NCBI GenBank assembly: GCA_041497675.1
Contig: JBGQGY010000013.1
Coordinates: forward strand, 1 to 43,429
Direction of reading: 5' to 3'
Origin: a bacterium
Lineage (GTDB): Bacteria; Sysuimicrobiota; Sysuimicrobiia; Sysuimicrobiales; Humicultoraceae
DNA: 43,429 bases
The notes beneath the pieces were generated by a model, which saw only the letters and a list, made by a program, of their open reading frames with translations, did no database searches and had not been told where the DNA came from. Below are positions 1 to 35,449 of the stretch, piece by piece. Within the stretch, counting starts at the first letter, position 1. Each line of letters begins with the position of its first letter. Made by a program: the position numbers and the translations under genes.

Positions 1-1
1 C

Positions 2-505: not shown

Positions 506-802
506 CCCGATCGGCGGGGAACACCAGTTCGGGCATGGTCTACATATTTCGTCATCTCGGCGCCCATGGCAGGAGGATAGGAGGAGGAGGGCGACGAATG
601 ACCAAGACAATCATAAGTGATTGGCGGAGAAACCCGGGTGTACCAGTACTAGCCTGCTAGCCTAGGATCGCACCCTGTCGTCGGAATTAGTTTCTGCACT
701 AGATCGGGCGCGATTGCTGTGAACAGACGCAGGCGTTAACGGCACCACGCACGCGCAAGCCGGAGAGCGTGTAATCTGTATGAAGCACCGGAGAGCGCGA
801 GC

Positions 803-1324
803 ATGGCTCAAGTTAACGCAACTGCGTCTTCTTGTTGGTTCGTCGCGCAAACGAGCGGTCGCGCCGAGCAGAGAGCCTGCGATTTCCTCAATCAGAAGGC
901 CGTAACGACGTATCTGCCGCGCTTGCTCGTTCGCCGGCGTCACGGCTCGCGGCGGTGGCAGGCGCTTGAACCGCTGTTTCCGGGTTATTTGTTCGTCCAG
1001 TTCGATCCGAGCCCCGAAACCATCTACCGCGTTCGATGGACGCCCGGGGTCGTGCGGCTGCTGGGCGACGGTGAGATGCCGATCCCTGTTTCCGATGAGG
1101 TCGTGGGGTATCTGCGGGGCCGGGAAGCACACAGTGGGTTCATTGTCCCACGGCACCCGCTCGTGCCGGGGCAGCGCGTACGATTCAAGAGTGGTCCATT
1201 CTCAATGCTCGAGGGCATCATTGAGCGGCCGGCCACTCGAGAAGATCGCGTGAGGGTGCTGCTGACTCTGGTTAACATGCAGGTAGCTGTTGAGGTGGAA
1301 GCCGACGTCCTAGAAGTCGGCTGA
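803..1324 (+). CDS. NusG-family paralog transcription antiterminator (RfaH/UpxY/LoaP-like)
   Basis: NGN domain (WFVAQT...EPLFPGYLFV...TPGVVRLLG...P.PVSD) plus KOW (PGQRVRFKSGPFSMLEG..RVRVLL). First gene of a polysaccharide locus. Confidence 0.92.
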   Translation: MAQVNATASSCWFVAQTSGRAEQRACDFLNQKAVTTYLPRLLVRRRHGSRRWQALEPLFPGYLFVQFDPSPETIYRVRWTPGVVRLLGDGEMPIPVSDEVVGYLRGREAHSGFIVPRHPLVPGQRVRFKSGPFSMLEGIIERPATREDRVRVLLTLVNMQVAVEVEADVLEVG

Positions 1325-1415
1325 TTCGGCACGGCCGCTAAGGCCGGACCGAACGAGGTCCGCAGTTTCGACCATAGATCGACCGGGATTGAGACAGCAC
1401 AAAGGGGTGAACAAT

Positions 1416-1667
1416 ATGTACCCTGATGGCGGAGCCATATCTGCCAAACGACCCGTGCTCCTACCAAACGGGGGCGACAAGGCTGCTGTGGATCATCCTG
1501 ATCCCGGGTTAAGGTCCTGCGAGACGAAACTCCTTGGCTTGATCCGCAACCGCTGGGCACTGGAGTTTGGTACGCGCGAGGTACGCCTGATGATCGAGTA
1601 CCAGGACAAAGTCCCGGTTCTGATTCGGATCACTGAGAACGTCGTCAAAGAAGAAAAGCTGAAGTAG
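1416..1667 (+). CDS. Small hypothetical protein (83 aa); C-terminal half resembles the YezD/DUF2292 pattern
   Basis: SD-like AGGGGTGA at 1403-1410 before ATG 1416. C-terminus ETKLLGLIR..EFG..V.LMIEYQDKVPVLIRITE...EEKLK. The family resemblance is judged by eye only. Confidence 0.6.
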   Translation: MYPDGGAISAKRPVLLPNGGDKAAVDHPDPGLRSCETKLLGLIRNRWALEFGTREVRLMIEYQDKVPVLIRITENVVKEEKLK

Positions 1668-1672
1668 CGACA

Positions 1673-1717
1673 GACAACTGAATAGCTTGTCCCTGACCCG
1701 TTGAGATGGGAGGGGAC
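1673..1717 (+). promoter_or_regulatory. Putative structured leader RNA / antiterminator element overlapping the terminator 5' arm
   Basis: GACAA(1673-1677)/TTGTC(1687-1691) hairpin around CTGAATAGC. GTCCC(1689-1693) can pair with GGGAC(1713-1717), enclosing CCCG/TGGG; this uses the terminator's left arm. Confidence 0.5.
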
Positions 1718-1761
1718 CGCAGGCTGCCGCCATCGCGGCAGTGCGGTCCCCTTCTTTTTTT
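1711..1761 (+). terminator. Strong intrinsic (Rho-independent) terminator upstream of the polysaccharide operon
   Basis: AGGGGACCGCA(1711-1721)/TGCGGTCCCCT(1742-1752) 11 bp, GG bulge, CTGCCGC/GCGGCAG 7 bp, CATC loop, followed by TCTTTTTTT (1753-1761). Confidence 0.9.
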
Positions 1762-1821
1762 GGGTCGGATTGGGTCGCCAAGACAGCAGCACGCAATGGC
1801 AGGGGATGGGGAGGTACGACA

Positions 1822-3300
1822 ATGCGTAAGCGATCGGGCATGGCCCAAATGCCTCACAGGCTGACGGCTCTCTTAGTCGCGTTGGTGTTTCTGTCGGCCG
1901 GCGTTCCCGCCGGCGCGCAGCAGACACCGCCGCCAACCGTCGGCGGTTACATTCTTGGCTCGGGAGATGTGTTAGAAGTGTCGGTCTGGGGGTATGCTGA
2001 TCTGACGCGTACGGTTGCCGTCCGGCCCGACGGCCAGATCACGGTGCCTCTGGTCGGCACCGTGACCGCCTCTGGGGTGTCGGTGGAGGAACTGACCCGC
2101 GTCCTGACCAGGGCATACAGTGCGTTCATCCGGAATCCTCAGGTCACGGTCATCGTCAAGGAGTTCCGCAGCATCCGGATCTCCGTGCTTGGCCAGGTTG
2201 CCAAGCCGGGCTCGTACAGCCTGCCGCCAGGCTCGCGCGTGCTTGAGGCCATCTCCGCCGCCGGCGGCATCCTAAACAGCGCTCTCGTCAAAGAGGTCCG
2301 TGTCATGCGGTCGAACAGGCAGACCGTGACATTGCAGACCGACGCTTTGCTGCGGGCAGACGCTCGGAACAACCCCCAGTTGCTTGGCGGCGAGACGATC
2401 TACGTGCCCGAGGTCAACAAGCTCAGCGTGTCCATTGTCGGCCAGGTCCACCGGCCTGGTTCCTACGAGTTGCTGCCGGGCACCCGCCTTCTGGATCTCC
2501 TCTCCGTCGCCGGCGGCGTGACGGACGTCGCTGCGCTGAGGGAGGCGCAGCTCCTGCGGCCCGGGGAACAGCCCGCCGTCGTGGACCTGGAAAAAGTACT
2601 CGCAGGCGACGCTGATGCCAACGTAACTCTGCGCGGCGGTGAAACGCTCGTTGTGCGCGAGGACCTGGTCAACGTCGTGAACGTCATGGGTGAGGTCGCC
2701 CGCCCTGGGCGGTATCGGCTCAAAGGCGAGATGCGCCTGGTCGACGTTTTGCTCCTGGCCGGCGGATTGACCGATCGGGCATCCGTCACGCAGGCGCGGT
2801 TGGTGCGGGCACGAGAGTCGCAGACCCTGAACCTGGACAACCTGCTCTTGCGCCAGGACATGAATTACAACATCGTGATGCAACCCGGCGATAGCGTGTT
2901 CGTCCCTGAAGAGACCAACAACAGATTCTATGTCCTCGGCGACGTCGCCCGGCCCGGGGTCTTTACGACGAAAGGCGGTCTGACGGTGCTTCAGGCTATC
3001 GCAATGGCGGGAGGCCCGGTGCAGCGCGGTGCCAGCACCGCCAAAACCGCCCACATTATCCGCCGTACCGGCACCCCGGAGCCCGCGGTGACTGCCTCGC
3101 TGACGGGCGTGAAGGTCGAGTCCCTGCCAAACGGCGCCAGCATGGTGACCCTGGACCTGCGGGCGCTCGTGCAAGCCGGCGACACCAGGCGCGACGTCCC
3201 AATTCAACCTGGCGACGTTCTCGTCGTTCCCCAGACCACGCTCGCCGGTATGTCGGGCATCCTCAGTATTCTGTCCGGAGTCTTCTGGTTCTTCCGATGA
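1822..3300 (+). CDS. wza: Polysaccharide export protein (Wza/OPX family) with Poly_export domain and several SLBB repeats
   Basis: GGAGGT SD before ATG 1822. Signal peptide; YILGSGDVLEVSVWG...VRPDGQITVPLVG; four repeats of V.G.V..PG.(Y/F)....AGG; hydrophobic C-terminal helix. Confidence 0.9.
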   Translation: MRKRSGMAQMPHRLTALLVALVFLSAGVPAGAQQTPPPTVGGYILGSGDVLEVSVWGYADLTRTVAVRPDGQITVPLVGTVTASGVSVEELTRVLTRAYSAFIRNPQVTVIVKEFRSIRISVLGQVAKPGSYSLPPGSRVLEAISAAGGILNSALVKEVRVMRSNRQTVTLQTDALLRADARNNPQLLGGETIYVPEVNKLSVSIVGQVHRPGSYELLPGTRLLDLLSVAGGVTDVAALREAQLLRPGEQPAVVDLEKVLAGDADANVTLRGGETLVVREDLVNVVNVMGEVARPGRYRLKGEMRLVDVLLLAGGLTDRASVTQARLVRARESQTLNLDNLLLRQDMNYNIVMQPGDSVFVPEETNNRFYVLGDVARPGVFTTKGGLTVLQAIAMAGGPVQRGASTAKTAHIIRRTGTPEPAVTASLTGVKVESLPNGASMVTLDLRALVQAGDTRRDVPIQPGDVLVVPQTTLAGMSGILSILSGVFWFFR

Positions 3301-5261
3301 ACGGCGCGACAACCGTTCAGTCGGTAACGCTGGAAGAACCGGAATTCAACCTGCGCGATTTCTTCAACGTCGTCGCCAGGCGTTGGAGGATCATCGTCGC
3401 ACCTTTCGCCGTCATCGTTGGCGCCGCCGTGGGCCTGTCCCTGGCCACACCACCTGTCTACCGAGCGTCCACCACCGTGACGACCGACAAATCCCCGCCG
3501 GTCATCTTGCTGGATCGATCTGGAGAGGTCAGCATGTTCTCCGACCAGCCGGCGACACAGGCGCCGGACGTACACACGCTGGCCGAACTGATCAAGAGCG
3601 ACGTCGTCCACGATGGCGCGATGGCCCGTCTGACGCCTGGGCTGGGAGGACAGGGGGCGAATGCAGCCCTGGCGAGCTTGAACGTCCAGCCCATTCGCGA
3701 CACGGAGTTGGTGCGCGTCAGCATCGAACACACCGATCCGAACGTTGCCGCCGACGCGGCCAACGCCGTCGTGGACAGCCTGATCGACATGAACCTCAAA
3801 GCCCGCCGCCGGCGTGCGACGGAGATCCAGCATTTCATCAAGCAACAGCTTGGCCTTGCCGGCGAGAAGCTGCGAAACAGCGAGGCCGAGCTCGTGGACT
3901 ACAAGAACCGCCACGGAGACGTCTCCCTCGCCCAAGAGACCAGCCTAACCCTGCAAAAGCTGGCCGAACTGGAAGCCAAGCGGGTGGACGCCCGTCTGCC
4001 TCGGCTCGAATCAGCATCACTCGTCGCCACCCTACAGAGCCAGCTCGCGAGCCTGGAGATCGAGTTCTCCGGGCTGCAGCAACAGTTCACAGAGAAGCAT
4101 CCCGCTGTGATCAGCACCAAGGCCAAGATCGAGGAAACAAAGCGACGGCTGCTGGTTGAGACGACCCGCGATCGGCAGACCGAGCAATCTCGCGAACGCG
4201 GGATTGCCGCGGCCATCGGTCAGTATGAGGACAGAGTGCGTGGGGTGCCGACGCGCGAAGCCGAGCTGGCGCGCCTCACGCGCAACACGAAGGAGGCCGA
4301 GCAGATCTACCTGCTCCTGTCGTCCAAATTTCAGCAGGCGATCATTGCGGAGGCGTCGATTGGCAGCGCGATCCAAGTCGTGGACACGGCCAAAGCGCCA
4401 AATTCACCGGCGAAGCAGCGAGCTCGCAGGACAATGTTCTTAGGCTCGATACTCGGCCTCATGTTCGGGATGGCGGCGGCCCTCTTCATCGAGCAGCTCG
4501 ACGATGCCGTGAGGTCGGCCAAAGACGTGGAGGAGGCGCTCGGTGCCCCAGTACTCGGAGCCATCCCGCTGGTAGACGTGCGACGTGATCGCAAGAAGGG
4601 ACGCCGCCGCGGTAGTGCGCCGCCGCTGCCACTGGCGCAGATGGATCGCTCGTCGGCGCTCAGCGAAGCATGCCGTACACTGCGCACGCATGTTCTCTCG
4701 GCGCTTCCCGGCAGCAGGCACAATTGTCTGCTCGTGACCAGCGCGCTGCCGGACGAGGGGAAGAGCACAGTCGCCGTCAACCTGGCGCTGGCCCTGGCGC
4801 ATGCCGATCGTCACGTGTGGCTTGTGGATTGTGACCTGAGACGATCCCGCCTGAGCCAGCTCTTCCCGGAAGCGGAGTCGCCGGGACTGGCGGCGTTCCT
4901 CACGGGCGACGCAGTGGCCGCCGGCGTCGTCCGGCCGACGAGCCATCCGGGGCTGTCGTTCGTGGCGAGCGGGCCGACCGCGTCAAACGCCGCTGAGCTC
5001 CTGGATAGCCCCCGTCTGGCGCGTTTCATCGAGGAGGCGCGTACCGGGGCTGATGTGGTGCTGCTCGATAGTCCCGCGGTGATGCCTGCAACTGACGCTG
5101 AGGAGATCGGCCGCAGGGTTGACGGCGTCCTGCTGGTGGTTCGGGCAGGCAAGACTGACCGGAGCGCTCTGGTCGAAGTACGGCACCGCATGGAACGGGT
5201 CGGAGCACGGATTGTGGGGGCCGTCCTGAATGGCGCTCCCGAGGGCCCATGGCGTTACTAG
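3297..5261 (+). CDS. wzc: Wzc/GumC-like polysaccharide co-polymerase with BY-kinase domain
   Basis: N-terminal Wzz region and TM (RRWRII...PVYRAS), coiled coil with KHP motif, second TM, Walker A SALPDEGKST, A' VDCDLRR, B LLDSP. ATGA overlap with upstream gene. Confidence 0.92.
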   Translation: MNGATTVQSVTLEEPEFNLRDFFNVVARRWRIIVAPFAVIVGAAVGLSLATPPVYRASTTVTTDKSPPVILLDRSGEVSMFSDQPATQAPDVHTLAELIKSDVVHDGAMARLTPGLGGQGANAALASLNVQPIRDTELVRVSIEHTDPNVAADAANAVVDSLIDMNLKARRRRATEIQHFIKQQLGLAGEKLRNSEAELVDYKNRHGDVSLAQETSLTLQKLAELEAKRVDARLPRLESASLVATLQSQLASLEIEFSGLQQQFTEKHPAVISTKAKIEETKRRLLVETTRDRQTEQSRERGIAAAIGQYEDRVRGVPTREAELARLTRNTKEAEQIYLLLSSKFQQAIIAEASIGSAIQVVDTAKAPNSPAKQRARRTMFLGSILGLMFGMAAALFIEQLDDAVRSAKDVEEALGAPVLGAIPLVDVRRDRKKGRRRGSAPPLPLAQMDRSSALSEACRTLRTHVLSALPGSRHNCLLVTSALPDEGKSTVAVNLALALAHADRHVWLVDCDLRRSRLSQLFPEAESPGLAAFLTGDAVAAGVVRPTSHPGLSFVASGPTASNAAELLDSPRLARFIEEARTGADVVLLDSPAVMPATDAEEIGRRVDGVLLVVRAGKTDRSALVEVRHRMERVGARIVGAVLNGAPEGPWRY

Positions 5262-6118
5262 AAGCCACCCGGGAACAGCGACGTTATCCGGAGCCCGCGC
5301 CGACGGTCGTGATCCGGCCGACCAGAGGATGGGCGTTCCTCGACGTCCGAGAACTATGGGCCCACAACGAGCTCATCTACTTCCTCACCGCTCGCAACAT
5401 CAAGGTCCGATACAAACAGGCGACGATCGGCATCGCGTGGGCCGTCCTGCAACCGCTCGCGATGATGGCCGTGTTCACGCTGTTCTTCGGGCGGTTGGCT
5501 CACTTGCCCTCGGCGGGCGCTCCATACCCGCTGTTTGCGTACGCGGGGTTGCTGCCCTGGCAGCTCTTCTCCCGGGCCATCACTGAGTCGACGAATAGTC
5601 TCATCATGCACCAGCGGCTGATCACACGGGTGTATTTTCCGCGAATCATCATCCCGATCTCAGTGACGCTCGCCGCGCTGGTCGACTTTGCGATCTCTGC
5701 CGTCCTGCTGCTGGGGCTCATGCTGGCGTATGGATTCAGACCAGGGGCTGCGGTCCTTTGGTTGCCGGTCTTCGTCCTGCTGCTGCTCTTGACGGCGTTC
5801 GGTGTTGGATTCTGGTTGTCGGCCCTCAACGTCGAGTTCCGCGACGTGGCCCAGGCCATGCCGTTTCTCAGCCAGTTGTGGCTGTTCGTGACGCCAGTGG
5901 TCTACCCCAGCAGCCTTGTCCCGGAGCAGTGGCGAGTGCTGTATGGGTTGAACCCGATGGCCGGCGTGGTCGAAGGCTTTCACTGGGCGCTGCTCGGCGC
6001 CGGGCCGGCACCCGGACCGATGCTGGCAGTCTCGAGTGCAGTGGCCGTCGGACTGTTCGTTAGCGGAATCGCCTGGTTCCGCCGCAGAGAACGCACCTTC
6101 GTGGATGTGGTCGGGTAG
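5249..6118 (+). CDS. wzm: ABC-2 type polysaccharide transporter permease (Wzm)
   Basis: IKVRYKQATIGIAWAVLQP, RVYFPR, TPVVYP, LNPM motifs; about 6 TM segments; ends FVDVV. Confidence 0.93.
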   Translation: MALLEATREQRRYPEPAPTVVIRPTRGWAFLDVRELWAHNELIYFLTARNIKVRYKQATIGIAWAVLQPLAMMAVFTLFFGRLAHLPSAGAPYPLFAYAGLLPWQLFSRAITESTNSLIMHQRLITRVYFPRIIIPISVTLAALVDFAISAVLLLGLMLAYGFRPGAAVLWLPVFVLLLLLTAFGVGFWLSALNVEFRDVAQAMPFLSQLWLFVTPVVYPSSLVPEQWRVLYGLNPMAGVVEGFHWALLGAGPAPGPMLAVSSAVAVGLFVSGIAWFRRRERTFVDVVG

Positions 6119-6120
6119 CT

Positions 6121-7368
6121 ATGGCCGCCGTGGCCGTCAGGGCAGAGGGGCTGAGCAAGCGCTACCGGATCGGGCAGAGAGTGCCATACAAGACGATTCG
6201 GGATACGCTGGCCGGCGCGATCTCAGCGCCATTCCGCTGGGGCCCGGCAGCGCTGAAACGCTCGGCCGCTCGGAACGGAGACCAAAATACCATCTGGGCG
6301 CTCAAGGACATCTCGTTCGAGGTCGGCGTCGGGGAGGTCGTGGGTCTCATCGGCCGCAATGGGGCCGGTAAGAGCACACTGCTGAAGATTCTCTCGCGCA
6401 TTACCGAGCCGACTGAGGGCGTTGCCCAACTCTATGGGCGCGTCGGCTCGCTGCTGGAAGTGGGCACCGGCTTTCATCCAGAACTGACCGGGCGCGAGAA
6501 CGTCTATCTCAATGGCGCGATCCTGGGGATGAAGCGGTTAGAGATCGACCGCAAGTTCGACGACATTGTGGCCTTCGCCGAGACGGAGAAGTTTCTCGAT
6601 ACACCGGTGAAGCACTACTCGAGCGGCATGTTCATGCGTCTGGGCTTCGCGGTCGCGGCCCACCTCGATCCGGAAATCTTGCTCGTCGATGAAGTCTTGG
6701 CTGTCGGCGACGTGGCTTTCCAGCGCAAATGCATGGAAAAGATCCGAGACGTGGCCCGGGGCGGGCGCACGGTTCTGTTCGTCAGCCATCGGATGAACTC
6801 CGTTCGGACGCTGTGCGGCCACTCGATCTGGCTGGAGGCGGGGCAGGTGAGAATGTCGGGCCCGACGGCCGAGGTCGTGAATGCCTACGAAGCAAGCTTG
6901 ACTGTCACGGACTCGGAGAGATGGGCGACCCGGGATGCGAATTCGGTCGCGCAGTTCCGTGGCTGGGAGATTGTTGAACCCCGTTCCGAACAGCCACACG
7001 TGTTAGAGACACAGGGCCCGCTCACTGTGAAGGTTGTCGTCGACGTGCGTTCCCCCATCCGGCATGGCGTTCACGCCATCAGTCTATGGAATACGGACGA
7101 CGTGTTGATTTGGGGATGGGCGACCGATGGCATCAACCTACCACCGGGAGTTCATGCCTTCATGTGCGATCTTCCGGGTTTGCCCTTGAAGCCCGGCGCG
7201 TATTCGTGGCGCGTCGGTCTCTACAGCGACGGATACCTTCTCGATCGGTGGCATTGTGTGCCGCAGATGATCATTGCCACGGCCGCGCTTGGGGACCGCC
7301 GAGACGAGTGGTCGGGACTGTTGAACATCCCGTGCGGATTCCGCGTGGTCGAGGACCGCCATTCGTGA
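6121..7368 (+). CDS. wzt: Polysaccharide ABC transporter ATP-binding protein (Wzt) with C-terminal Wzt_C-type domain
   Basis: Walker A GRNGAGKST, GFHPELTGREN, signature YSSGM, Walker B ILLVDEVL; about 150-aa beta-rich C-terminal extension. Confidence 0.94.
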   Translation: MAAVAVRAEGLSKRYRIGQRVPYKTIRDTLAGAISAPFRWGPAALKRSAARNGDQNTIWALKDISFEVGVGEVVGLIGRNGAGKSTLLKILSRITEPTEGVAQLYGRVGSLLEVGTGFHPELTGRENVYLNGAILGMKRLEIDRKFDDIVAFAETEKFLDTPVKHYSSGMFMRLGFAVAAHLDPEILLVDEVLAVGDVAFQRKCMEKIRDVARGGRTVLFVSHRMNSVRTLCGHSIWLEAGQVRMSGPTAEVVNAYEASLTVTDSERWATRDANSVAQFRGWEIVEPRSEQPHVLETQGPLTVKVVVDVRSPIRHGVHAISLWNTDDVLIWGWATDGINLPPGVHAFMCDLPGLPLKPGAYSWRVGLYSDGYLLDRWHCVPQMIIATAALGDRRDEWSGLLNIPCGFRVVEDRHS

Positions 7369-8084
7369 GCCACGCCATTACCATACAGATTCACGTACCG
7401 GGTTGGTTTCTCCGTCGGTTGCGCCACGGAAAGGCCCGACTGAAGGGAGCGTCCAGGGCTGTCGCGTCACCACCGGACCTGGCTGGGGACCGCGACGTGG
7501 AATGGTCCTGGGTCGCGTCTCATATGCCGGCCGGCCCTGGAGAGGCGTTGGATTTTGGACCGGGCGGCAGCCATCTCGGGCTCGTGGCCGCGCACAGAGG
7601 CTTCAGGGTCACGGCCCTCGATCTCCAGCCGGTGAACTGGTCGTACGTCCATCCCGGGCTCCGTTTCGTCCAGGGCGATCTCTTGACGCTGCCGTTCCCC
7701 AAACACCTTTTCGACCTGGTCGTTAACTGCTCGACCGTTGAGCACGTAGGGCTTACTGGACGGTACGGCGTGAGTGAACCTCGGCCGGACGGAGACCTCG
7801 AAGCGATGGCCTACCTCCGCACGCTAATGAAACCGAGCGCCACCATGCTGCTGACCGTTCCTGTGGGGCGGGATGCCGTGGTTGGGGCATTGCATCGCGT
7901 GTATGGGGCGCAACGATTGGAGAGACTGTTGGCGGGATACGTGATCGAAGAGCAGCAGTTTTGGTCGAAGGATTCTCAGAACGCCTGGACGCTTGTCGAT
8001 CATCGAGACGCGTTAATGGTCGATCCTGGGGCGCAGACGTACGGGCTGGGATGCTTTGTGTTGGCGCGCGGAATGGGCGGGTAG
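7365..8084 (+). CDS. Class I SAM-dependent methyltransferase, DUF268-like
   Basis: GTG start overlaps the wzt stop (GTGA). ALDFGPG motif I; STVEHVGLTGRYG...DGDLEAM...LTVPVGRD...HRVYG matches the DUF268-type pattern. Confidence 0.75.
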   Translation: MSHAITIQIHVPGWFLRRLRHGKARLKGASRAVASPPDLAGDRDVEWSWVASHMPAGPGEALDFGPGGSHLGLVAAHRGFRVTALDLQPVNWSYVHPGLRFVQGDLLTLPFPKHLFDLVVNCSTVEHVGLTGRYGVSEPRPDGDLEAMAYLRTLMKPSATMLLTVPVGRDAVVGALHRVYGAQRLERLLAGYVIEEQQFWSKDSQNAWTLVDHRDALMVDPGAQTYGLGCFVLARGMGG

Positions 8085-8085
8085 A

Positions 8086-8952
8086 ATGGTCACCATATTT
8101 GCTGTCCCAAAACCCTTCACGGGCCACATCGGAATCATCCAGCGAAACGCCATTCGCAGCTGGTCTAGGCTCCACCCGCGTGTAGAAGTCATTCTGTGCG
8201 GAGATGAACCGGGGACCAAGGAGATGGCGGACGAGGTGCACGCGACGTACCTGCCGCACGTAATCCGCAACCAGTACGGCACGCCCTTGCTGAACTCCGT
8301 GTTTGAACAGGCCGAACGAGCGGCCCACTCGCGGCTGATGTGTTACGTCAACGCCGATATCGTGCTGTTGGGCGACTTTGCGACGGCCATGCAGCGGATC
8401 GGGTTCCCCAGGTTCCTGATGGTCGGTCAACGTTGGGATGTCGACCTCACGGAATCGTGGGATTTTGAACAACCCGGTTGGGAGGGCGCGCTCCGCAGTC
8501 TCGTCGCGGCGCGGGGAAGACTGCATCCGCCAATGGGCAGCGACTACTTCGTGTTTCCGAGGAATCGCGGCGTGGCAACGCTGCCGCCCTTCGCCGTGGG
8601 GCGTCCCGAATGGGACAACTGGTTCATTTACCATGCGCGGCGGCATCGAGTACCTGTGATTGACGCAACGCGGGTGGCGACGGTCATTCACCAGAACCAC
8701 GGGTATGATCATGTGCCTGAACGCCGTGATGACACGTGGGAGGGGCCGGAGGCCGACTGGAATCGCAGTCTCGTCGGGCGCCGTGAGCATATCTACGTTC
8801 TCTCCGATGCGTCACATGTGCTGACGCCGAAATGGCTGATGCCAACGGTGGGGTTGAAGCTGAAGAGGTTGGCTCGTGCCGGCATCCAACGGTGTCGTCG
8901 CTCCCCATCCCTGTCACGTGCGTATCATCGCCTGAGGCAACGGTTGATTTGA
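8086..8952 (+). CDS. Putative GT-A fold glycosyltransferase-like protein
   Basis: KPF.GHI.IIQRNAI.SW, YVNADI, GSDYFVFP, GRPEWDNW, HQNH motifs; embedded in the operon. Confidence 0.6.
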   Translation: MVTIFAVPKPFTGHIGIIQRNAIRSWSRLHPRVEVILCGDEPGTKEMADEVHATYLPHVIRNQYGTPLLNSVFEQAERAAHSRLMCYVNADIVLLGDFATAMQRIGFPRFLMVGQRWDVDLTESWDFEQPGWEGALRSLVAARGRLHPPMGSDYFVFPRNRGVATLPPFAVGRPEWDNWFIYHARRHRVPVIDATRVATVIHQNHGYDHVPERRDDTWEGPEADWNRSLVGRREHIYVLSDASHVLTPKWLMPTVGLKLKRLARAGIQRCRRSPSLSRAYHRLRQRLI

Positions 8953-8953
8953 C

Positions 8954-9817
8954 GTGATGGCGGCCGTCTCTGTTGTGATGCCGACGTATAACCGGGGCCC
9001 GGTCATTTGGCGTGCGCTCCACAGCGTGGTGGCGCAAACGTGGCGCGATCTCGAGGTGATCGTGGTCGATGATGCGTCCACCGACGAGACGGTGGGCGTA
9101 CTGACCGAGCAGACTCGGGGAGACTCGCGTGTTCGCCTGGTACGGCATGCGCAGAATAAGGGGGCGCAGGCCGCACGCAACACGGGCATCAAGATCGCTC
9201 ACGGCGAGTGGATAGCGTTTCTGGATTCTGACGACGTGTGGTTTCCAGACAGCCTCGAGGTGAGACTGGACGAGGCCACGCGCACCGGGGCGCGGGTCGT
9301 GCATTCGGAGTGTGACGTGCTCGAGGCAGGTGCGAAGGACGCTCGGCCGTTCGGCGTCCCGCCTATGAAAGGTCGGATCTATGCGGAACTGCTTCGACGT
9401 CCCGGTCCCATGTTTCAGGGCTTGCTCGTGCGAAAAGAGGCCCTCATCCGCATTGGCTACCTCGATGAGAGTCTGATTGCGTATCAAGAATGGGACACGG
9501 CGATCAGACTTGCACGCCACGATGCATTTGCGTACGTGTCGACACCGACGTTTACTTACGATTGTCGCTCGGATGACGCGATCTCGCGGCACCGGCTTCG
9601 CGCAGCCGTCGCGTATGAGCGGATCATCACAAAGCATCGGTGGCCAATTCTTCGCCACCTGGGGCCAAAGGCACTGGCAACGCACTTTCGAACGGCCGCC
9701 GGACTGTATAGGGCCGCGAACCACGCCGGTGAGGCCCGTCGATGCCTGCGGACGGCATTTCTCTTGTGGCCCTTTCGACCGAGAGCGATCCTGCGTCACC
9801 TGCAGCGCTTTGCATAG
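8954..9817 (+). CDS. Glycosyltransferase family 2
   Basis: VSVVMPTYNR, VVDDASTD, ARNTG, FLDSDD. Confidence 0.92.
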   Translation: MMAAVSVVMPTYNRGPVIWRALHSVVAQTWRDLEVIVVDDASTDETVGVLTEQTRGDSRVRLVRHAQNKGAQAARNTGIKIAHGEWIAFLDSDDVWFPDSLEVRLDEATRTGARVVHSECDVLEAGAKDARPFGVPPMKGRIYAELLRRPGPMFQGLLVRKEALIRIGYLDESLIAYQEWDTAIRLARHDAFAYVSTPTFTYDCRSDDAISRHRLRAAVAYERIITKHRWPILRHLGPKALATHFRTAAGLYRAANHAGEARRCLRTAFLLWPFRPRAILRHLQRFA

Positions 9818-9839
9818 TCCATTGGCGACGCGGTAGACG

Positions 9840-11174
9840 ATGAGAATCGGCGTTGTTCCTGTCTCAAAGAGCGGTGGTGTCTATCAATACAGCGCCACCA
9901 TGCTTTGGGCTCTCGAGGGGCAGGTGGCGGATGGGGACGACGACGAGTTTCTTGCGTTTGTCGACGAGACGCAGCATCCGTATGCGGTGGGGTTGCGGCA
10001 GCGTGGGTGGACAACGAGGGCCATCGATCCACCGTCGCAGAGGCGGCGGGTGTGGGAGCGCCGGGCTTTGCGGGCATTACGCCAGGCTGCGGGCGAGGGC
10101 AGGGTTCGCGGCGGCTGGAGATGGCTCAAGCGCACGCTTGGGCACGCGCCTGGCCAGGACAAGGCGAGTTTGCCTGACCCCGACAGGGTCCGGTACCGTC
10201 CGGACATGAGCCGCTGGTTCCGGCAGTGCGGAGTTGAACTCATGCTCTACCCGTGGCCGAGGTCGCTGGCCTTTGAAGTCGACATTCCGTACGTGATGGC
10301 GATTCATGATCTGCAGCACCGGCTTCAGCCAGAGTTCCCCGAAGTATCGGCGAACGGGGAATGGGAGTGGCGTGAGTACTGCTTCCGTAACGGGGCACGG
10401 TATGCCACGTCACTCCTGGCTGATTCTGAAGTGGGCAAGGAAGACATCCTCAACTTCTACGGCGCGTACGGCGTGACATCGGACCGCGTAAAAGTCCTGC
10501 CGTTTCTTCCAGCCTCGTACCTTGCTGGCGAGGTATCCGAAGACGAGCGGGTGCGGCTGCGAACGACCTACCAGTTGCCCGAGCGGTATGTCTTCTACCC
10601 TGCTCAGTTCTGGCCACACAAGAACCACGCCGGCATCGTTCGAGCACTGGCACTGTTAAAACACGAGCATCGGCTGAGGGTTCCGGTCGTCTTTTGCGGT
10701 GCTTATAGTGGCGAGATCCGATCTCGCACCTTCCGAGAAGTCATGACGGTCGCGCGGCAATTGGGAGTCGACAATCAGGTCCAGTACCTTGGTTTCGTCC
10801 CGGACCAGGATATGTCTGGTCTCTATGCGGGGGCCGATGCGCTGGTCATGCCGACTTTCTTCGGTCCGACCAATATCCCTGTGCTCGAAGCCTGGGCGTT
10901 CGCCTGCCCCGTCCTCACGTCAGACATTCGGGGCATCCGGGAGCAAGCCGAGGACGCGGCGGTATTGGTCGATCCACGATCAGTGGAAGCGATCGCCGAT
11001 GGGATCTATCGACTCTGGACCGATGCGACGCTCCGGGATAGGCTGGCCGAGCGAGGCCGACGGCGTCTCGCCGGCTATGGTCCCGATGACTATACCCGTC
11101 GACTGAGAGAAATACTGGACGACGCAAGAGAGCGGGTGCGCTCCGACGCCAGAGCAGCCCTTCTGAGCTCCTGA
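9840..11174 (+). CDS. Glycosyltransferase family 4 (MtfB/WbdB-like)
   Basis: IHDLQH, YPAQFWPHKNH, PTFFGPTNIPVLEAW. Confidence 0.9.
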   Translation: MRIGVVPVSKSGGVYQYSATMLWALEGQVADGDDDEFLAFVDETQHPYAVGLRQRGWTTRAIDPPSQRRRVWERRALRALRQAAGEGRVRGGWRWLKRTLGHAPGQDKASLPDPDRVRYRPDMSRWFRQCGVELMLYPWPRSLAFEVDIPYVMAIHDLQHRLQPEFPEVSANGEWEWREYCFRNGARYATSLLADSEVGKEDILNFYGAYGVTSDRVKVLPFLPASYLAGEVSEDERVRLRTTYQLPERYVFYPAQFWPHKNHAGIVRALALLKHEHRLRVPVVFCGAYSGEIRSRTFREVMTVARQLGVDNQVQYLGFVPDQDMSGLYAGADALVMPTFFGPTNIPVLEAWAFACPVLTSDIRGIREQAEDAAVLVDPRSVEAIADGIYRLWTDATLRDRLAERGRRRLAGYGPDDYTRRLREILDDARERVRSDARAALLSS

Positions 11175-11211
11175 TTCGACTGACGCCGGACACGAAGTGG
11201 AGGACGCGCGC

Positions 11212-11673
11212 ATGAAGACGATGGATGGGTCGCCCGATGAAGTGTGGGATGGAGAGCGCCTGATCGCGCTCATCATTCGGGCCTCCTACCAGGCAGAGGG
11301 GATCATGTTCTTCACGGACCGGAGCCTCTCGCAGCAGCTCGGATACATGCGACGGCCGAGGGGATACGCGATCGGCGCGCATGTCCACAACAAGCTGCAT
11401 CGGAACGTCGAGTACACGCAGGAGGTCCTGATCATCCGCAAGGGACGGCTCCGGGTCGACCTCTACGACGCGGAGCACCGGTTCCTGACGGATCGAATCC
11501 TGGAGCCTGGGGACATCATCCTCCTCGCATCAGGCGGGCACGGGTTCGAGATGTTGGAAGAGGTGGAGATGGTTGAAGTCAAGCAGGGGCCATATGCTCC
11601 AACGGATGACAAGACGTTCTTCACACCTGCTCGGTCGCGGGGCGAGCAACGCCTGGCATCGGTGAAGCCATGA
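11212..11673 (+). CDS. Cupin-fold protein
   Basis: GGAGGA SD; HVH...TQEVL.I.KG.L...GDIILL..GGHGF cupin-type motifs; coupled to the DegT gene. Confidence 0.75.
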   Translation: MKTMDGSPDEVWDGERLIALIIRASYQAEGIMFFTDRSLSQQLGYMRRPRGYAIGAHVHNKLHRNVEYTQEVLIIRKGRLRVDLYDAEHRFLTDRILEPGDIILLASGGHGFEMLEEVEMVEVKQGPYAPTDDKTFFTPARSRGEQRLASVKP

Positions 11674-12806
11674 CGTCGATCACGTCTGAGGAACTCACAA
11701 TCCCCGTCAACGAGCCGGTTCTCGGCACGAGCGAGCTGGCCTACGTAAGGGAAGCTGTCGAAACAGGATGGATCTCATCGGACGGTCGGTTCGTCGGCGA
11801 GTTCGAGCGGGCGTTTGCGGCGTTCTGCGGACGTCGGCACGGCGTGGCCGTGTGCAACGGCTCGGCTGCGTTGGAGGTGGCGACCGCCGCGGTCAATCTC
11901 CAACCGGGGGATGAAGTCATCCTGCCGACATTCACGATCATCGCCTGCGCGGCCGCCATCATCGAGCGCGGAGCGATTCCGGTTCTCGTGGATAGCGAGC
12001 CGGACACCTGGAACATGGATACACACCAGATCGCCGACCGGATCACGCCCCGCACACGGGCGATCATGCCCGTCCACATTTATGGGCACCCGGTGGATAT
12101 GGACCCGCTGCTCGAACTTGCCGGAGCACACCATCTTATGGTCATCGAAGACGCGGCCGAAGTGCACGGGGCCGAGTACAGGGGACGCCGCTGCGGATCG
12201 CTCGGGGATGTCAGCACCTTCAGCTTTTACGCCAACAAGATCATCACCACTGGGGAAGGCGGCATGCTGGTCACGGATGACGATGCCCTCGCGGAGCGAT
12301 GCCGGCTTCACCGAAACCTCTGCTTCCAGGGCCCGCGTCGGTTCGTCCACCAGGAGTTGGGACGGAATTTTCGGATGACGAACCTGCAGGCAGCCGTCGG
12401 CGTGGCGCAGATGGAGCGGATCGAGCAGTCGATCGCCAAGAAGCGGTGGATCGGGCAGTCGTACACTGAGCATCTCCAGGGGATCCCCGGGCTCCTCCTA
12501 CCTATCGAGCGGCCGTGGGCCAAGCATGTGTACTGGGTCTACGGCTTGGTTCTCGATGACACCGTGCCATTCGACGCAACAGAGTTTGCTCGTCGGCTGG
12601 CCGCGCGTGGCGTGCAGACACGCCCCTTCTTCTGGCCGATGCACGAACAACCCGTGTTCCGGCAGATGGGACTGTTCCTCAACGAGCGGTACCCGGTCGC
12701 CGAGAGGCTTGCCCGCCGCGGGCTGTACCTGCCATCGGGTATGGCCCTGACGGAAAGCCAACTTGGCCATGTCTGCGACGCGGTCCGCGCGGTGCTCAAG
12801 GTATGA
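11670..12806 (+). CDS. DegT/DnrJ/EryC1/StrS aminotransferase (GDP-perosamine synthase-like) #1
   Basis: IPVNEP, VHIYGHP, IEDAAE.HG, FSFYANKIITTGEGG, GLYLPSG. Confidence 0.92.
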   Translation: MTSITSEELTIPVNEPVLGTSELAYVREAVETGWISSDGRFVGEFERAFAAFCGRRHGVAVCNGSAALEVATAAVNLQPGDEVILPTFTIIACAAAIIERGAIPVLVDSEPDTWNMDTHQIADRITPRTRAIMPVHIYGHPVDMDPLLELAGAHHLMVIEDAAEVHGAEYRGRRCGSLGDVSTFSFYANKIITTGEGGMLVTDDDALAERCRLHRNLCFQGPRRFVHQELGRNFRMTNLQAAVGVAQMERIEQSIAKKRWIGQSYTEHLQGIPGLLLPIERPWAKHVYWVYGLVLDDTVPFDATEFARRLAARGVQTRPFFWPMHEQPVFRQMGLFLNERYPVAERLARRGLYLPSGMALTESQLGHVCDAVRAVLKV

Positions 12807-13573
12807 GCGGCGTGGCTGCATTTGAGGCATACGCCGCCTTCTATGACGCCTTGTATCGTGACAAGGACTATGCGGGCGAATGCGACGTCCTCGAACGGAT
12901 CTTCGAGCGTTTCGCCGTGTCACCGGTGCGGCAGATTCTCGACGTCGGATGTGGTACCGGGGGGCACGCGATCGTCCTGGCATCCCGGGGTTACGCCGTC
13001 ACGGGCGTGGATCGCTCGGGCCAGATGCTGGCCGTCGCTCGCGCGAAGGACCACCCGCGCGAGCCAAATGTCCTATTTGAAGAGGCGGATATCCGCTCGT
13101 GGCGTGGGGGGAGGACGTGGGACGCGGCCCTGGCGATGTTCGCGGTCCTCTCCTACCAGGTTGACCATGACGACGTGGCAGCGGTGATCGAGAGCGTGAG
13201 GATGCACCTTGCTCCTCAGGGGCTCTTCGTCTTCGACATCTGGTTCGGCCCCGGAGTCTTGACCGAACCGCCGAGCGAGCGCACCAAGGAGACGCGCGAG
13301 CACGGTCATGAGATCACCAGGTACGCGTCGCCGCACCTTGACCTCGTCCGGCAGACGGTTGACGTCGATTACTTCATTACCGATGTGAATGGCCAGGGGA
13401 TGGTCCGGCGAGTCCGCGAGACTCACCGGATGCGATTCTTCTTTCCTAACGAACTGGACCTACTGCTGACGGCAGGTGGGTTCCGCCTTGTCCGCTTGTG
13501 TCCGTTTGGGCAGCTGGACGAGCCAGTGCAACGCGAGACCTGGAACGCGACAGTCATCGCCCAGGCCGTATAG
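12803..13573 (+). CDS. Class I SAM-dependent methyltransferase (sugar N-methyltransferase-like N-terminus)
   Basis: FYDALYRDKDYAGE, ILDVGCGTG, GVDRS..ML. Confidence 0.85.
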   Translation: MSGVAAFEAYAAFYDALYRDKDYAGECDVLERIFERFAVSPVRQILDVGCGTGGHAIVLASRGYAVTGVDRSGQMLAVARAKDHPREPNVLFEEADIRSWRGGRTWDAALAMFAVLSYQVDHDDVAAVIESVRMHLAPQGLFVFDIWFGPGVLTEPPSERTKETREHGHEITRYASPHLDLVRQTVDVDYFITDVNGQGMVRRVRETHRMRFFFPNELDLLLTAGGFRLVRLCPFGQLDEPVQRETWNATVIAQAV

Positions 13574-13575
13574 AC

Positions 13576-14880
13576 ATGGTCCCCACACCCTTGCGCGTGG
13601 CAATAAACGCCCAAATCTATCCGCTGGAGACGTTTGGAGGCGTCGCCACGACGCTTACTGGCCTTGTTCGATCACTGGGGACGCTCGACGGACCAGAGGA
13701 GTACGTGATCATTGGACCGTGGCAGGAGCCCGAGTGGCTGCGACCCTTTCTGGGGCCGAACCAGCGCATCGTCTCCGGTCCTCTGCCGCCGCGCCGTCGG
13801 CTTACCAGTGTTGTCGAACGGCTGCGCTCCGTATCCAGTCGGCTCCGCGCGCGCGCGGCCCGACCCGCGGCCGGAGCAGAAAAGTATCGGGCGCCCGTCT
13901 CAGATGGGTTCTACGAGCGGCTGGGATGCGACATGATCCATTTTCCGGATGTGGAATTCGTCGTATCTCGGTTGCCCGCGATCTACAACCCCCATGATCT
14001 CCAGCACCTGCACTTTCCTGAGTTCTTTACGCCCAAGGCCCTGATGTGGCGGGCCGCCTACCATCCGACTGGATGCCGGCTGGCGCATACAGTGGTGGTG
14101 GAGTCCCGGTGGGTCAAGGACGACATCGTGAAACAGTTTGGGCTCGATCCAAAGAAGATCCAGGTCATCCCCCTGGCCCCACCCACACAGACGTACCCGG
14201 AGCCATCTGTCGACGCCCCGAGTCACGTGCTGAACACCTACAGGCTCGAGCAGCCGTTCGCGCTCTATCCGGCGCTTACATGGCCGCACAAGAACCACGT
14301 CCGGCTCCTCGAGGCGCTCGCGCTCCTGCGCGACCGGCACCAGGCTCGGGTGAGGCTGGTCTGCACGGGTTATCAGAACAACTTTTGGCCACAGGTCGAG
14401 CGCCGGCTGCGGGACTTGGGACTCCAGGATCAGGTCAGGTTCCTCGGGATGATTCCCGCCGAGCATCTGCGAGCGCTCTACCGGCTTGCGCAGTTTGTCG
14501 TGATCCCGACGCTTTTTGAAGCAGCGAGCGAGCCAGTCTATGAGGCGTGGCACGACGGCGCACCGGTCGCCTGTTCCAATGTGACGTCCCTACCGGCACA
14601 GGCCGGCGATGCGGCATTGATCTTCGATCCTCTCTCCGTCGAGTCGATTGCCGCGGCTGTGGGAGAGATGGCGACAAACGCGCAATTGCGCGAGGCCCTG
14701 ATGCGGCGAGGTGCCGCGCGATTGAGGAACTTTAGCTGGGAGCGCACCGCGAAAGCGTACCGGGCCGTATACCGTCGGGCTGCGGGACGCGCTTTGACCG
14801 AGGAGGACCGATGGCTGCTGACGTGGGACTGGATGCAAGACACGAAAGAAGAACAGTCACCGGCACAGCGCGCGGGCTAA
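13576..14880 (+). CDS. Glycosyltransferase family 4 (MtfB-like), paralog of 9840-11174
   Basis: HDLQH, YPALTWPHKNH, PTLFEAASEPVYEAW, FSWERTA. Confidence 0.88.
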   Translation: MVPTPLRVAINAQIYPLETFGGVATTLTGLVRSLGTLDGPEEYVIIGPWQEPEWLRPFLGPNQRIVSGPLPPRRRLTSVVERLRSVSSRLRARAARPAAGAEKYRAPVSDGFYERLGCDMIHFPDVEFVVSRLPAIYNPHDLQHLHFPEFFTPKALMWRAAYHPTGCRLAHTVVVESRWVKDDIVKQFGLDPKKIQVIPLAPPTQTYPEPSVDAPSHVLNTYRLEQPFALYPALTWPHKNHVRLLEALALLRDRHQARVRLVCTGYQNNFWPQVERRLRDLGLQDQVRFLGMIPAEHLRALYRLAQFVVIPTLFEAASEPVYEAWHDGAPVACSNVTSLPAQAGDAALIFDPLSVESIAAAVGEMATNAQLREALMRRGAARLRNFSWERTAKAYRAVYRRAAGRALTEEDRWLLTWDWMQDTKEEQSPAQRAG

Positions 14881-15992
14881 GCCAGCCGCGAGTCATACCG
14901 GTCGCCGCACCCGTCCTCGCGGGCAACGAGCAGGCGTATGTTTTGGACTGCCTGCAGTCCACCTGGATTTCCGCGCATGGGGAATACGTCGGCCGATTTG
15001 AAACCGCGTTCAGCGAGTTCTGCGGGGCACGGCACGCGATCTGCTGTTCGAGTGGAACGGCCGCGTTACATCTCGCGCTTCTGGCTCTCGCCGTTGGACC
15101 CGGGGACGAGGTGCTCGTCCCGACCCTGACCTTCGTGGCGACGGCCAACGCGGTGACCTTTTGCGGCGCCCGGCCAGTTTTTATCGACGCCGAGTCGAAG
15201 ACCTGGAATGTCGATCCGTCACTGCTCGAGGCGAGGATCACTCCTCGTACGAAGGGTATTGTCGCCGTGCACCTGTATGGTCACGCGGCAGAGATGGACT
15301 CTGTGCTCGCCGTCGCTCAACGCCATGGCCTGTTTGTGATCGAGGACGCGGCGGAGGCTCACGGCGCCCAGTACCGCGGCCGGCCCGTGGGCACGTTTGG
15401 CAACATGGCGACCTTCAGTTTCTCCGGCAACAAGACGATCACCACCGGCGAAGGCGGCATGGTTGTCACCGACGATGCCGCGCTGGCAGCCAAGGTGTGT
15501 CAGCTGAAGGCGCAGGCGATGGACCCAACCCGGCGCTACTGGTTCCCGCGCATCGGTTTCAACTACCAACTGACGAACATTGCCGCGGCGATAGGACTGG
15601 CCCAAATGGAGATGGCGAGCTGGCACGTGCAGCGTCGCCGCCAGATCGCATCGTGGTATCGTGAGGATCTTGATGGGGTCTCGGGCATCACCCGGCAGGC
15701 CGAGCAACCATGGGCCAGCCATGCGTACTGGATGTTTAGTGTTCTCTTGGATGAGGCTGCAGCCGACCGTGACGCCGTCATGGCGCGGCTCGCCGAGCGG
15801 GGCATCGAGACTCGTCCCGTGTTCTACCCGCTACATACGCTGCCGCCATACCGTGCCGGCGCCGCCGACTCGGCGTTGCCCGTCGCCGAGCGGATCGCGC
15901 GGCGCGGGCTCAGCCTGCCCACCTGGGGCGGCTTGACCCGCGAGGACGTCCACTACGTGTCGGAGTGCTTGCGGGACTGCCTGGGGCAATGA
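14811..15992 (+). CDS. DegT/DnrJ/EryC1/StrS aminotransferase (perosamine synthase-like) #2
   Basis: AGGAGG at 14801-14806 before ATG. IPVAAP, VHLYGH, IEDAAEAHG, FSFSGNKTITTGEGG, ETRPVF. Start position uncertain (overlaps the upstream gene). Confidence 0.9.
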   Translation: MAADVGLDARHERRTVTGTARGLSQPRVIPVAAPVLAGNEQAYVLDCLQSTWISAHGEYVGRFETAFSEFCGARHAICCSSGTAALHLALLALAVGPGDEVLVPTLTFVATANAVTFCGARPVFIDAESKTWNVDPSLLEARITPRTKGIVAVHLYGHAAEMDSVLAVAQRHGLFVIEDAAEAHGAQYRGRPVGTFGNMATFSFSGNKTITTGEGGMVVTDDAALAAKVCQLKAQAMDPTRRYWFPRIGFNYQLTNIAAAIGLAQMEMASWHVQRRRQIASWYREDLDGVSGITRQAEQPWASHAYWMFSVLLDEAAADRDAVMARLAERGIETRPVFYPLHTLPPYRAGAADSALPVAERIARRGLSLPTWGGLTREDVHYVSECLRDCLGQ

Positions 15993-16936
15993 CGCTGCCA
16001 CGTGAACCGCTCGTTTCTATAGTCACGCCGTCCTTCAATCAGGGAGGCTTTATCGCCGAGACGATCGCCTCGGTCCTGGGCCAGGATTATCCCCATGTGG
16101 AGTACCTGGTCGTCGATGGCGGCTCGACAGATGGGACCCTAGACATCCTGCGCCGCTTCGGTCACCGGTTGAGCTGGAGCTCAGAACCCGACCGAGGGCA
16201 ATCGGACGCCATCAACAAGGGCTGGCGCGGGACTCACGGAGAGATCATCGCCTGGCTGAACGCCGATGATCTGTATCGGCCGTCTGCCATCACGAAGGTG
16301 GTCGCGTTCTTCCAGCAACATCCAGACATCGACCTTGTCTATGGTGACTGCGACTTTATCAACGAGGGCGGCGATGTCCTAGGGCGACACCATAAGGGGC
16401 AGGCCAGCGCTGCCGATCTGGTGCGGTCGCCCGTGAGCCTTATCCTTCAGCCCGCGGCGTTCCTCCGCAGGCGCGTGCTGGAGAGCGTCGGCTACCTGGA
16501 CGAAACGCTTCAATTCATCATGGACATGGAATACTGGCTACGGGTGGCCTCTCGGCACAACATTTCGCACCTTCCTGAGTGCCTCGCGGCCTTTCGTGTT
16601 CATGGGGGATCGAAGTCCGGTCGCCAGTCTCAGCGCTTCGAGGACGAGCGCCTGCGTGTCTACGAGCAGTTCTTCAAATCTCCGACTGTCCCGGATCATC
16701 TCAAACGACTCGAACGAGAGGCTATGCGCAACGTATACTCGCGGGCCGCGAATGATCACTTTCTAGCAGGCGATATGAAACAAGCCCAACACTTTGCCGC
16801 GGTCTCATGGCGGTACCTTCCGCTGAGGCCTCAACGCATCCAACTGAAGGTGCTGGTGCTGGGCCTGGCCGGGTCCCGGGGGGTACGGCTGGCGGCATGG
16901 CTCAGGAATTTTGCCGGAGCTGCCGGCGGGCTGTGA
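15989..16936 (+). CDS. Glycosyltransferase family 2 (WcaE/WfgS-like)
   Basis: VSIVTPSFNQG, VDGGSTDGT, EPDRGQSDAINKG, WLNADD; ATGA overlap. Confidence 0.92.
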   Translation: MTLPREPLVSIVTPSFNQGGFIAETIASVLGQDYPHVEYLVVDGGSTDGTLDILRRFGHRLSWSSEPDRGQSDAINKGWRGTHGEIIAWLNADDLYRPSAITKVVAFFQQHPDIDLVYGDCDFINEGGDVLGRHHKGQASAADLVRSPVSLILQPAAFLRRRVLESVGYLDETLQFIMDMEYWLRVASRHNISHLPECLAAFRVHGGSKSGRQSQRFEDERLRVYEQFFKSPTVPDHLKRLEREAMRNVYSRAANDHFLAGDMKQAQHFAAVSWRYLPLRPQRIQLKVLVLGLAGSRGVRLAAWLRNFAGAAGGL

Positions 16937-16962
16937 GACTCGGCCGTGGCGAGGGCTAGACG

Positions 16963-18024: not shown

Positions 18025-18054
18025 CGATCTGCCATCAACGGGGAGCAACCATCC

Positions 18055-19146: not shown

Positions 19147-19153
19147 GGGTCTT

Positions 19154-21819: not shown

Positions 21820-21825
21820 TGACGG

Positions 21826-25312: not shown

Positions 25313-25377
25313 AGACTCATTCCTGCAAGGCTTCAAACCTACTGACGTTTCTATCGCATCGAGGGGGTGTGGTATCC

Positions 25378-26373: not shown

Positions 26374-26408
26374 GTTCGTACCGGATACGTTTGAGGACGG
26401 TGATAACG

Positions 26409-29104: not shown

Positions 29105-29122
29105 ATCGCGCCCACCTAGAGT

Positions 29123-34528: not shown

Positions 34529-34546
34529 CTGAACCCTGAAGGCGTC

Positions 34547-35434: not shown

Positions 35435-35449
35435 GCGCGGGGCCATCCG

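Follow-up and report, generated by a model that had tools for sequence, protein, structure and literature searches.

The logic of a protein that holds an RNA hairpin against a transcription terminator is known from several systems. RAT, on which BglG, SacY and LicT act, is described as a stem-loop of about 30 nt that partly overlaps an intrinsic terminator and is bound by a small dimeric, beta-rich RNA-binding module (PMC12591593). ANTAR proteins are likewise described as stabilising a structure that excludes the terminator, in this case two short hairpins with 6-nt loops that carry A at position 1 and G at position 4 (PMC3369931). RfaH is reported to require the 12-nt DNA element ops for its loading (PMC9630627), and NusA is reported to bind single-stranded sites of the kind present in nut and rRNA leaders (PMC2724277, PMC6614801). 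For the DUF2292/YezD/OscA family of small proteins, OscA has been described as co-transcribed with the gene for a sulfate-binding protein (PMC3596284), and we found no published RNA role for the family in the literature.

Here we analyse a 43,429-nt stretch of DNA (the window), which is contig C13 of a 3.97-Mb genome that is 98.6% complete. A 29-nt hairpin overlaps an intrinsic terminator in the gap between a small gene and a polysaccharide cluster. We hold it to be reasonably probable that this leader is a protein-stabilised antiterminator with the product of the small gene as the trans-acting factor, binding being predicted. The putative attenuator belongs to an undescribed but widespread family.

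The leader and its competing folds

The leader element sits in a 154-nt gap that extends from the stop codon of the small ORF (1665-1667) to the ATG of a Wza-like exporter gene (1822). The exporter is the first gene of a co-directional polysaccharide cluster (1822..30892, + strand), delineated from its ORFs and Pfam matches, which also encodes Wzc-like and Wzm/Wzt-like ABC components, many glycosyltransferases and nucleotide-sugar enzymes. Judging from gene order, this cluster of about 29 kb may form a single transcript. No sigma-70-like promoter was found in positions 1-5000 of the window. On the same strand, 3' of the cluster, a GntR regulator, a sugar ABC transporter and catabolic enzymes (32460-42884) probably constitute a separate unit.

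The candidate antiterminator hairpin (1689..1717, + strand; GUCCCU-GA-CCCG(U)-loop-(A)UGGG-A-GGGGAC), defined by covariation and a covariance model, consists of an outer stem (GTCCCT 1689-1694 with GGGGAC 1712-1717), an inner stem (CCCGT 1697-1701 with ATGGG 1706-1710) and the terminal loop TGAG. A previous sequence-only reading of this DNA had proposed both stems from words that all lie where it placed them; its TGA/A internal loop, however, is a GA/A loop closed by a U-G pair. The hairpin by itself has a folding energy of -16.1 kcal/mol, and the fold of 1665-1720 (-19.9, z -2.65) was equalled in 1 of 200 shuffles. The predicted intrinsic terminator (1708..1761, + strand) pairs 1708/1711-1730 with 1735-1755 around the loop CATC and ends in a U tract at 1752-1761. 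Its stem (1708-1755) with the U tract reaches -41.6 kcal/mol (z -6.5), which none of 200 shuffles matched, and a simple terminator scan detected its upper part only.

The 3' strand of the upstream hairpin is common to both structures over 7-10 nt (1708/1711-1717). GGGGAC is thus also the left arm of the terminator, as had been pointed out, and the proposed mutual exclusion of the two folds is strict for the outer stem. Since the inner stem-loop is compatible with a terminator that begins at A1711 and can persist alongside it, the outer stem is the switch. When the growing transcript is folded, the minimum free energy (MFE) structure is the upstream hairpin as long as the 3' end lies between 1717 and 1746; once it reaches 1749, the terminator takes over. 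Forcing the upstream hairpin costs 10.2 kcal/mol in the window and between 3.5 and 19.3 kcal/mol across the 18 family copies with sufficient sequence for this comparison. Because the terminator is favoured in all 18, the upstream hairpin needs help to win, in agreement with the sequence-only reading. For a single small protein, a deficit of about 10 kcal/mol is a lot to overcome without a contribution from kinetics.

Two other pairings suggested for the leader fared less well. GACCC/GGGTC is part of the full-length MFE structure, but GGGTC is located 3' of the U tract and is confined to 2 of 18 copies, those of the window and its closest relative, and we rejected it as a functional pairing. 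The suggested competitor, GACAA/TTGTC, is a weak pairing, at -2.8 to -3.8. If the register is shifted so that GACAGAC 1669-1675 pairs with GCTTGTC 1685-1691, the result is an optional 5' stem (1669..1691, + strand) restricted to a sub-lineage, which would loop out the 9-nt word described below and compete for GTC. This stem is a perfect 7 bp with compensating changes in two copies only (L041 and L042; -10.9 and -10.3), and has one mismatch in the window; the remaining 16 of 19 copies are not predicted to fold this way.

Conservation and covariation of the hairpin

When 41 relatives were searched at the DNA level, strong matches came from five other genomes, in which the core is identical and the terminator body differs; among homologues the terminator keeps its position while its upper-stem sequence varies. 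The covariance model has a 53-bit match at 1689-1717, its sole match in the window and in the genome, and no second copy of the hairpin was found in the source genome by patterns, BLAST or the covariance model. Across 94 genomes of the phylum, the RNA model matched nine at E < 1e-6, several copies from which had been included in its training, and two more weakly (E about 0.04).

The conservation and covariation anticipated for homologues are evident in an alignment of 30 copies, assembled from 15 of 19 family and 15 of 16 distant candidates after removal of near-duplicates. There, 89.5% of cells are paired and seven of ten pairs show two-sided changes; pairing as high was seen in 0 of 500 shuffles and lies far above slid controls, with the limit that the distant copies were picked partly for pairing and are therefore not independent. 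The invariant core comprises about nine bases (C-U-G-A-C / G-A-G-G) clustered at the internal loop, and the terminal loop varies freely in length and sequence while the stems covary. Invariant bases at the internal loop, covarying stems and a variable loop are what would be expected of a protein site.

Pattern scans located the element in Bacillaceae, Kurthia, an Oscillospiraceae, a Geobacteraceae and phage contigs, although their matches (62 viral, then 18, then at least 119 in genomes) are largely due to chance. Among the matches listed in the latter two scans, an overlapping terminator accompanies 16 of 128 distinct ones. The pair left free by the pattern is Watson-Crick in 11 of the 16 listed matches with a terminator versus 36 of the 112 without, and the pair flanking it in 12 of 16 versus 23 of 112, kin among these matches not being independent; Y-R pairs were not enriched in the terminator-bearing matches listed (11/16 versus 68/112). 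Rfam, the comparison first proposed for this leader, was searched and assigned no family: in Rfam 15 none reached the gathering threshold in the window, the best match in 1300-1900 having 17 bits versus 46, and nothing exceeded threshold at the motif in 20 related loci.

Several loci have unusual arrangements. Six phage contigs (L058, L116, L081, L090, L126 and L067) carry the 9-nt word, hairpin and terminator, and four of them have a DUF2292-like small ORF immediately upstream, as judged by eye. In G024 (L037, G024:C275), a unit of ops-like word, small ORF, hairpin and terminator is duplicated in tandem and adjoins a tRNA gene and a truncated NusG paralog, and L049 has two hairpin-terminator copies on either side of inserted genes. 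A zinc-ribbon gene (PF09723 in L049) recurs directly after the small ORF or the terminator in L036, L046, L049, L050 and L037.

The small protein and its DUF2292 kinship

The small ORF upstream of the leader (1416..1667, + strand) has possible starts at ATG 1416 (83 aa) and GTG 1488 (59 aa), and its conserved core of 52 aa spans 1509-1664; the extension from ATG 1416 was rejected as a conserved part, as only the last 52 aa are kept among homologues. The protein has 75 close homologues, some labelled 'Armatimonadota bacterium' at NCBI, which reduce to 19 representatives at 50% identity. Pfam gave no match to it at E 10, PF10055 has none in the genome, and one distant relative scores 13.6 bits against PF10055, versus a cut-off of 22. 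When the small-protein alignment was compared by hhalign with 20 DUF2292 proteins, the probability was 91% (E 1e-6, 31 columns), dropping to 72% with the close alignment alone. The two profiles have in common a helix, an (F/Y)G motif, a strand, a QD turn, a second strand and an EK end. Together with the homologues and the structure model, this profile similarity indicates that the small protein is a distant DUF2292 relative below the Pfam cut-off.

The structure model consists of a helix and a beta-hairpin (pLDDT 81.7). A PDB fold search returned no significant hit (best Z 3.3, rmsd 4.5, 48 aligned residues) and a PDB sequence search no significant match, and the null fold result does not show a new fold. 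In the ESM Atlas the best match (0.85) was to unnamed viral clusters, which we treat as a lead only, and a viral scan with the single protein gave 17 pattern stretches with no relative among them. A homodimer is predicted for the protein, joined through its first strands in antiparallel arrangement, with a score of 0.70 versus 0.00 for the best control; contacts agree in at least 97% across runs, with pLDDT of at least 84. Of solved homodimers, 20 of 30 reach the mark applied, as does 1 of 23 monomers.

Within the phylum, the small protein is encoded in 9 of 94 genomes, which are the same nine that carry the RNA. The nine genomes are related members of a single family, and the eight NusG paralogs that stand beside the small protein are the closest sequence group among the paralogs, so the co-occurrence of protein and RNA partly reflects inheritance. 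At 12 metagenome loci chosen by the protein, the hairpin is present in 11, and the twelfth sequence stops just past the ORF.

The suggested recurrence of a motif of this kind downstream of small YezD-like genes was confirmed at true DUF2292 genes. Among 29 Bacillota loci chosen by the protein alone, with the training locus excluded and the hairpin sought from -40 to +210 nt of the stop, hairpin and overlapping terminator are found in 12, compared with 3 of 616 control windows, and are absent nearby in 17. DUF2292 is present in 27 of 151 sampled Bacillota genomes; a strict RNA search of the same 151 matched seven, five with DUF2292 and two with no PF10055 match. Five distant genomes that carry the RNA all encode DUF2292 above the cut-off, and in three of them the best RNA match abuts it. 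One hairpin copy each in Kurthia and a Geobacteraceae genome is distant from any DUF2292 match, the stop of the small ORF and the hairpin lie 19 nt to 2.8 kb apart, with genes inserted between them, and at two loci the hairpin is present twice. Variable spacing, double copies and copies remote from DUF2292 fit a diffusible factor. In L277, L280 and L281 the DUF2292 frame reaches into the hairpin or reads through it, its stop codon lying within the hairpin in two cases, and several Bacillota (L300-L304) encode tandem double-DUF2292 proteins with a conserved DGEGI/DGDGI tail.

We propose the following mechanism. RNA polymerase would transcribe the NusG paralog, the small gene and then the leader, in which the 29-nt hairpin would form first. 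By default, the 3' arm of the terminator would strip the outer stem from the hairpin, and transcription would end at the U tract, ahead of wza. When the DUF2292-like small protein, which is probably dimeric with a sheet of four strands, is present and active, as a presumed signal would determine, it would bind the invariant U-G/GA/A internal loop. The bound protein would hold the outer stem; the terminator would be left with only an upper hairpin that stops 6-9 nt before the U tract, and the polymerase would continue into the polysaccharide cluster of 29 kb. A second and separate processivity aid would be the NusG paralog, which would load at an ops-like site of its own upstream.

A word of rRNA leaders ahead of the hairpin

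Upstream of the hairpin lies a single-stranded word, AACTGAATA (1676..1684, + strand; family consensus AACYGMAUA), which matches the post-boxA word of rRNA leaders. GACAACTGAA occurs twice in the genome, in this leader and again behind a CCTT, 96 nt ahead of the 23S gene. From 34 family genomes, 15 16S leaders were recovered, and every one of them contains CCTTGA(C/A)-AACYRCATA-GTGG. A matrix of the rRNA word, built from 24 regex sites of which nine are promoter or other look-alikes that dilute it, scores at least 10 bits in 16 of 20 family copies picked by the hairpin, versus 0.3% of random windows. From the boxA core, only the terminal GAC/AC of CCTTGAC precedes the word in the leader, and the CCTTG part is absent. 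These matches suggest that a NusA-type word of rRNA leaders has been reused in an mRNA attenuator.

NusA of M. tuberculosis is reported to bind an extended element of the rRNA leader whose AUA is critical, and in lambda NusA is reported to bind the spacer 5' of boxB (PMC2724277); the extended element is also reported to pair with the 16S-23S spacer (PMC6614801). Such pairing, which we see in L252 and L323, offers an alternative reason for the conservation of the word in rRNA. The source genome encodes NusA, and the word at 1676-1684 is possibly a NusA site, presumably resembling the mycobacterial NusA ligand. As a general part of the element the word was rejected: it is missing in 11 of 11 correctly located, protein-picked Bacillota copies that retain the hairpin, a twelfth regex match (L306) being mislocated, and the distant copies with the word came from a pattern that required it. 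Upstream of the unlinked 23S gene (L253:4776-4910, G000 contig C16, minus strand) lies a near-consensus promoter of its own, after which the leader contains an AACYKMATA-type word, a GATGAGC/GCTCATC competing helix, a terminator and then boxA; this attenuator-like arrangement was seen in three of five genomes viewed (also L255 and L256).

It is conceivable, although we rather doubt it, that the leader is a minimal nut-like site in which the rRNA-leader word would dock NusA and a DUF2292-like dimer would clamp the hairpin, the resulting complex and the paralog-bearing polymerase passing a two-tier gate into the 29-kb operon. If this were true, DUF2292/YezD/OscA would be a new cross-phylum family of antitermination proteins. 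The opposite direction of control appears unlikely to us, whether the protein binds and promotes termination or represses, or NusA alone decides through the AACYGMAUA word. The rRNA-leader match and the presence of a NusA gene would be in keeping with it, as would the enhancement of termination by NusA described at a LoaP-controlled leader (PMC12691694), but the terminator wins unaided, the conserved fold is the one that excludes the terminator, and the Bacillota copies keep the hairpin without the word.

The NusG paralog and its ops-like word

The NusG paralog (803..1324, + strand; RfaH/LoaP/UpxY-like, 173 aa) was identified by Pfam PF02357 (E 1.4e-18); its best NCBIfam match is RfaH (E 6.6e-30), and it falls under the cut-offs of RfaH, LoaP, UpxY and NusG. 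An ops-like element, TGTACCC-N4-GGCGGAGCCAT (1417..1439, + strand), was recognised from a word that lies downstream of paralog loci, and its frame relative to the small ORF varies among loci; we take it to resemble the E. coli ops sequence. GGCGGWGCY is found within 300 nt downstream in 25 of 30 paralog loci of the phylum, compared with 1 of 315 opposite-strand windows. The word, GGCGGAGC(C/T), lies about 45-270 nt after the paralogs (L371-L400), often with a TACCC/CACC-type word in front. It is likely the cognate site of an uncharacterised NusG-paralog clade, and the element at 1417-1439 would probably be the loading site of the paralog.

With a paralog only 365 nt upstream in the window and present in nearly all family loci, the hairpin could be its ligand, as a leader hairpin is for LoaP, with the small ORF as a bystander or helper; LoaP is described as reading through its leader terminator only when the leader hairpin is present (PMC12691694). 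We regard this as improbable, in view of where the hairpin occurs. Eight of the 30 paralog loci encode the small protein, and seven of these have the RNA inside the stretch examined, the eighth having it at the cut end, but none of the 22 loci without the small protein has the hairpin, even though the ops-like word is so common among paralog loci. The second paralog locus of the source genome (L320:1223-3199, G000:C33), inside another polysaccharide locus, has the ops-like word, there overlapping the ribosome-binding region of the next gene, but neither small ORF nor hairpin. Conversely, 24 distant hairpin loci have no NusG-like gene within the 1.2-3.1 kb examined, and the hairpin has no UNCG loop. 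Taken together, the ops-like word tracks the paralog, whereas the hairpin tracks the small protein.

Downstream genes and spacing

Downstream genes at Bacillota hairpins are often for sulfur assimilation, as are seven of 17 downstream proteins scanned (four with a PAPS reductase domain, three ATP sulfurylases). The many Bacillota copies ahead of such genes, together with the invariant internal loop, might recall a small-molecule riboswitch aptamer embedded in the terminator, a reading to which we give very little weight, as only about nine bases are invariant, Rfam has no match, the tie to one protein family is tight, and the downstream genes are unrelated between lineages (polysaccharide export in the window, an ECF component, an Fe-ADH and phage loci). 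We consider equally remote a leader-peptide attenuation in which translating the small ORF would govern the folding in cis and the protein product would be secondary: the hairpin begins 19-29 nt past the stop in 9 of 20 family copies and the DUF2292 frame enters it at three distant loci, but the wide range of distances noted above argues against this model, with other spacings of 76 nt to 2.8 kb and whole genes inserted, the 52-aa core is kept like a folded protein, and some copies are remote from any such ORF.

Comparison with known systems

The leader had been likened to the targets of BglG/LicT (RAT) and ANTAR proteins, a likeness that holds for its RAT-like working and fails for membership of either class. 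As in the BglG/SacY/LicT systems, the 29-nt hairpin overlaps an intrinsic terminator, here by 7-10 nt; the candidate binder differs in being a stand-alone 52-aa helix and beta-hairpin without PRD domains, and the operon is not for sugar uptake. RAT membership was rejected because the CAT domain (PF03123) has no match in the 98.6% complete genome, the profile being positive in 4 of 14 controls. ANTAR-target membership was rejected as well, since the leader has one hairpin, with a loop that varies in length and sequence and with conservation in the internal loop; the sole ANTAR gene of the genome is on another contig. By analogy, the most likely reading is that the leader has a BglG/RAT-like logic built from new parts, with protein binding predicted.

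The locus resembles LoaP and RfaH systems in that a paralog, followed by an ops-like word, adjoins a long biosynthetic operon whose leader contains a terminator. It differs in that the paralog is below the RfaH and LoaP cut-offs and that the hairpin overlaps the terminator and does not track the paralog; LoaP-target membership was rejected on the lack of a UNCG loop and the absence of the hairpin from all 22 paralog loci without the small protein. With lambda nut and rRNA leaders it shares a single-stranded word that ends in AUA and is followed by a hairpin, the word being the post-boxA word of family 16S leaders. Unlike in those leaders, the CCTTG of boxA is absent, so that the full boxA core for NusB-S10 was not found in the leader, and the word is optional outside the lineage; since the hairpin overlaps the terminator, a local switch suffices.

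We found no paper describing this RNA, and both the RNA and the protein family are without description in the literature searched; the supplements of two motif surveys (PMC11109978, PMC5737381), which were outside the search, may list the motif, and the supplement of PMC2965389 has no match to yezD, DUF2292 or cysH, two of its five word matches, those listed, being unrelated. New here are the divergent DUF2292 subfamily, a polysaccharide cluster as the target, the distinction from the NusG module and the match to the rRNA word.

The closest comparison is with the DUF2292/YezD/OscA family itself (PF10055, NF033785). The same hairpin-terminator follows true members, and profile similarity to the window's protein is high, whereas that protein is under the Pfam cut-off, has a first strand four residues longer, and would gate polysaccharide instead of sulfur genes. 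The family would thereby be extended to a divergent subfamily gating surface-polysaccharide synthesis, apart from the co-located NusG-paralog module. DUF2292/YezD/OscA, widespread and with no known molecular function, gains a defined candidate RNA target of 21-29 nt, including in the sulfur-assimilation leaders of Bacillus.
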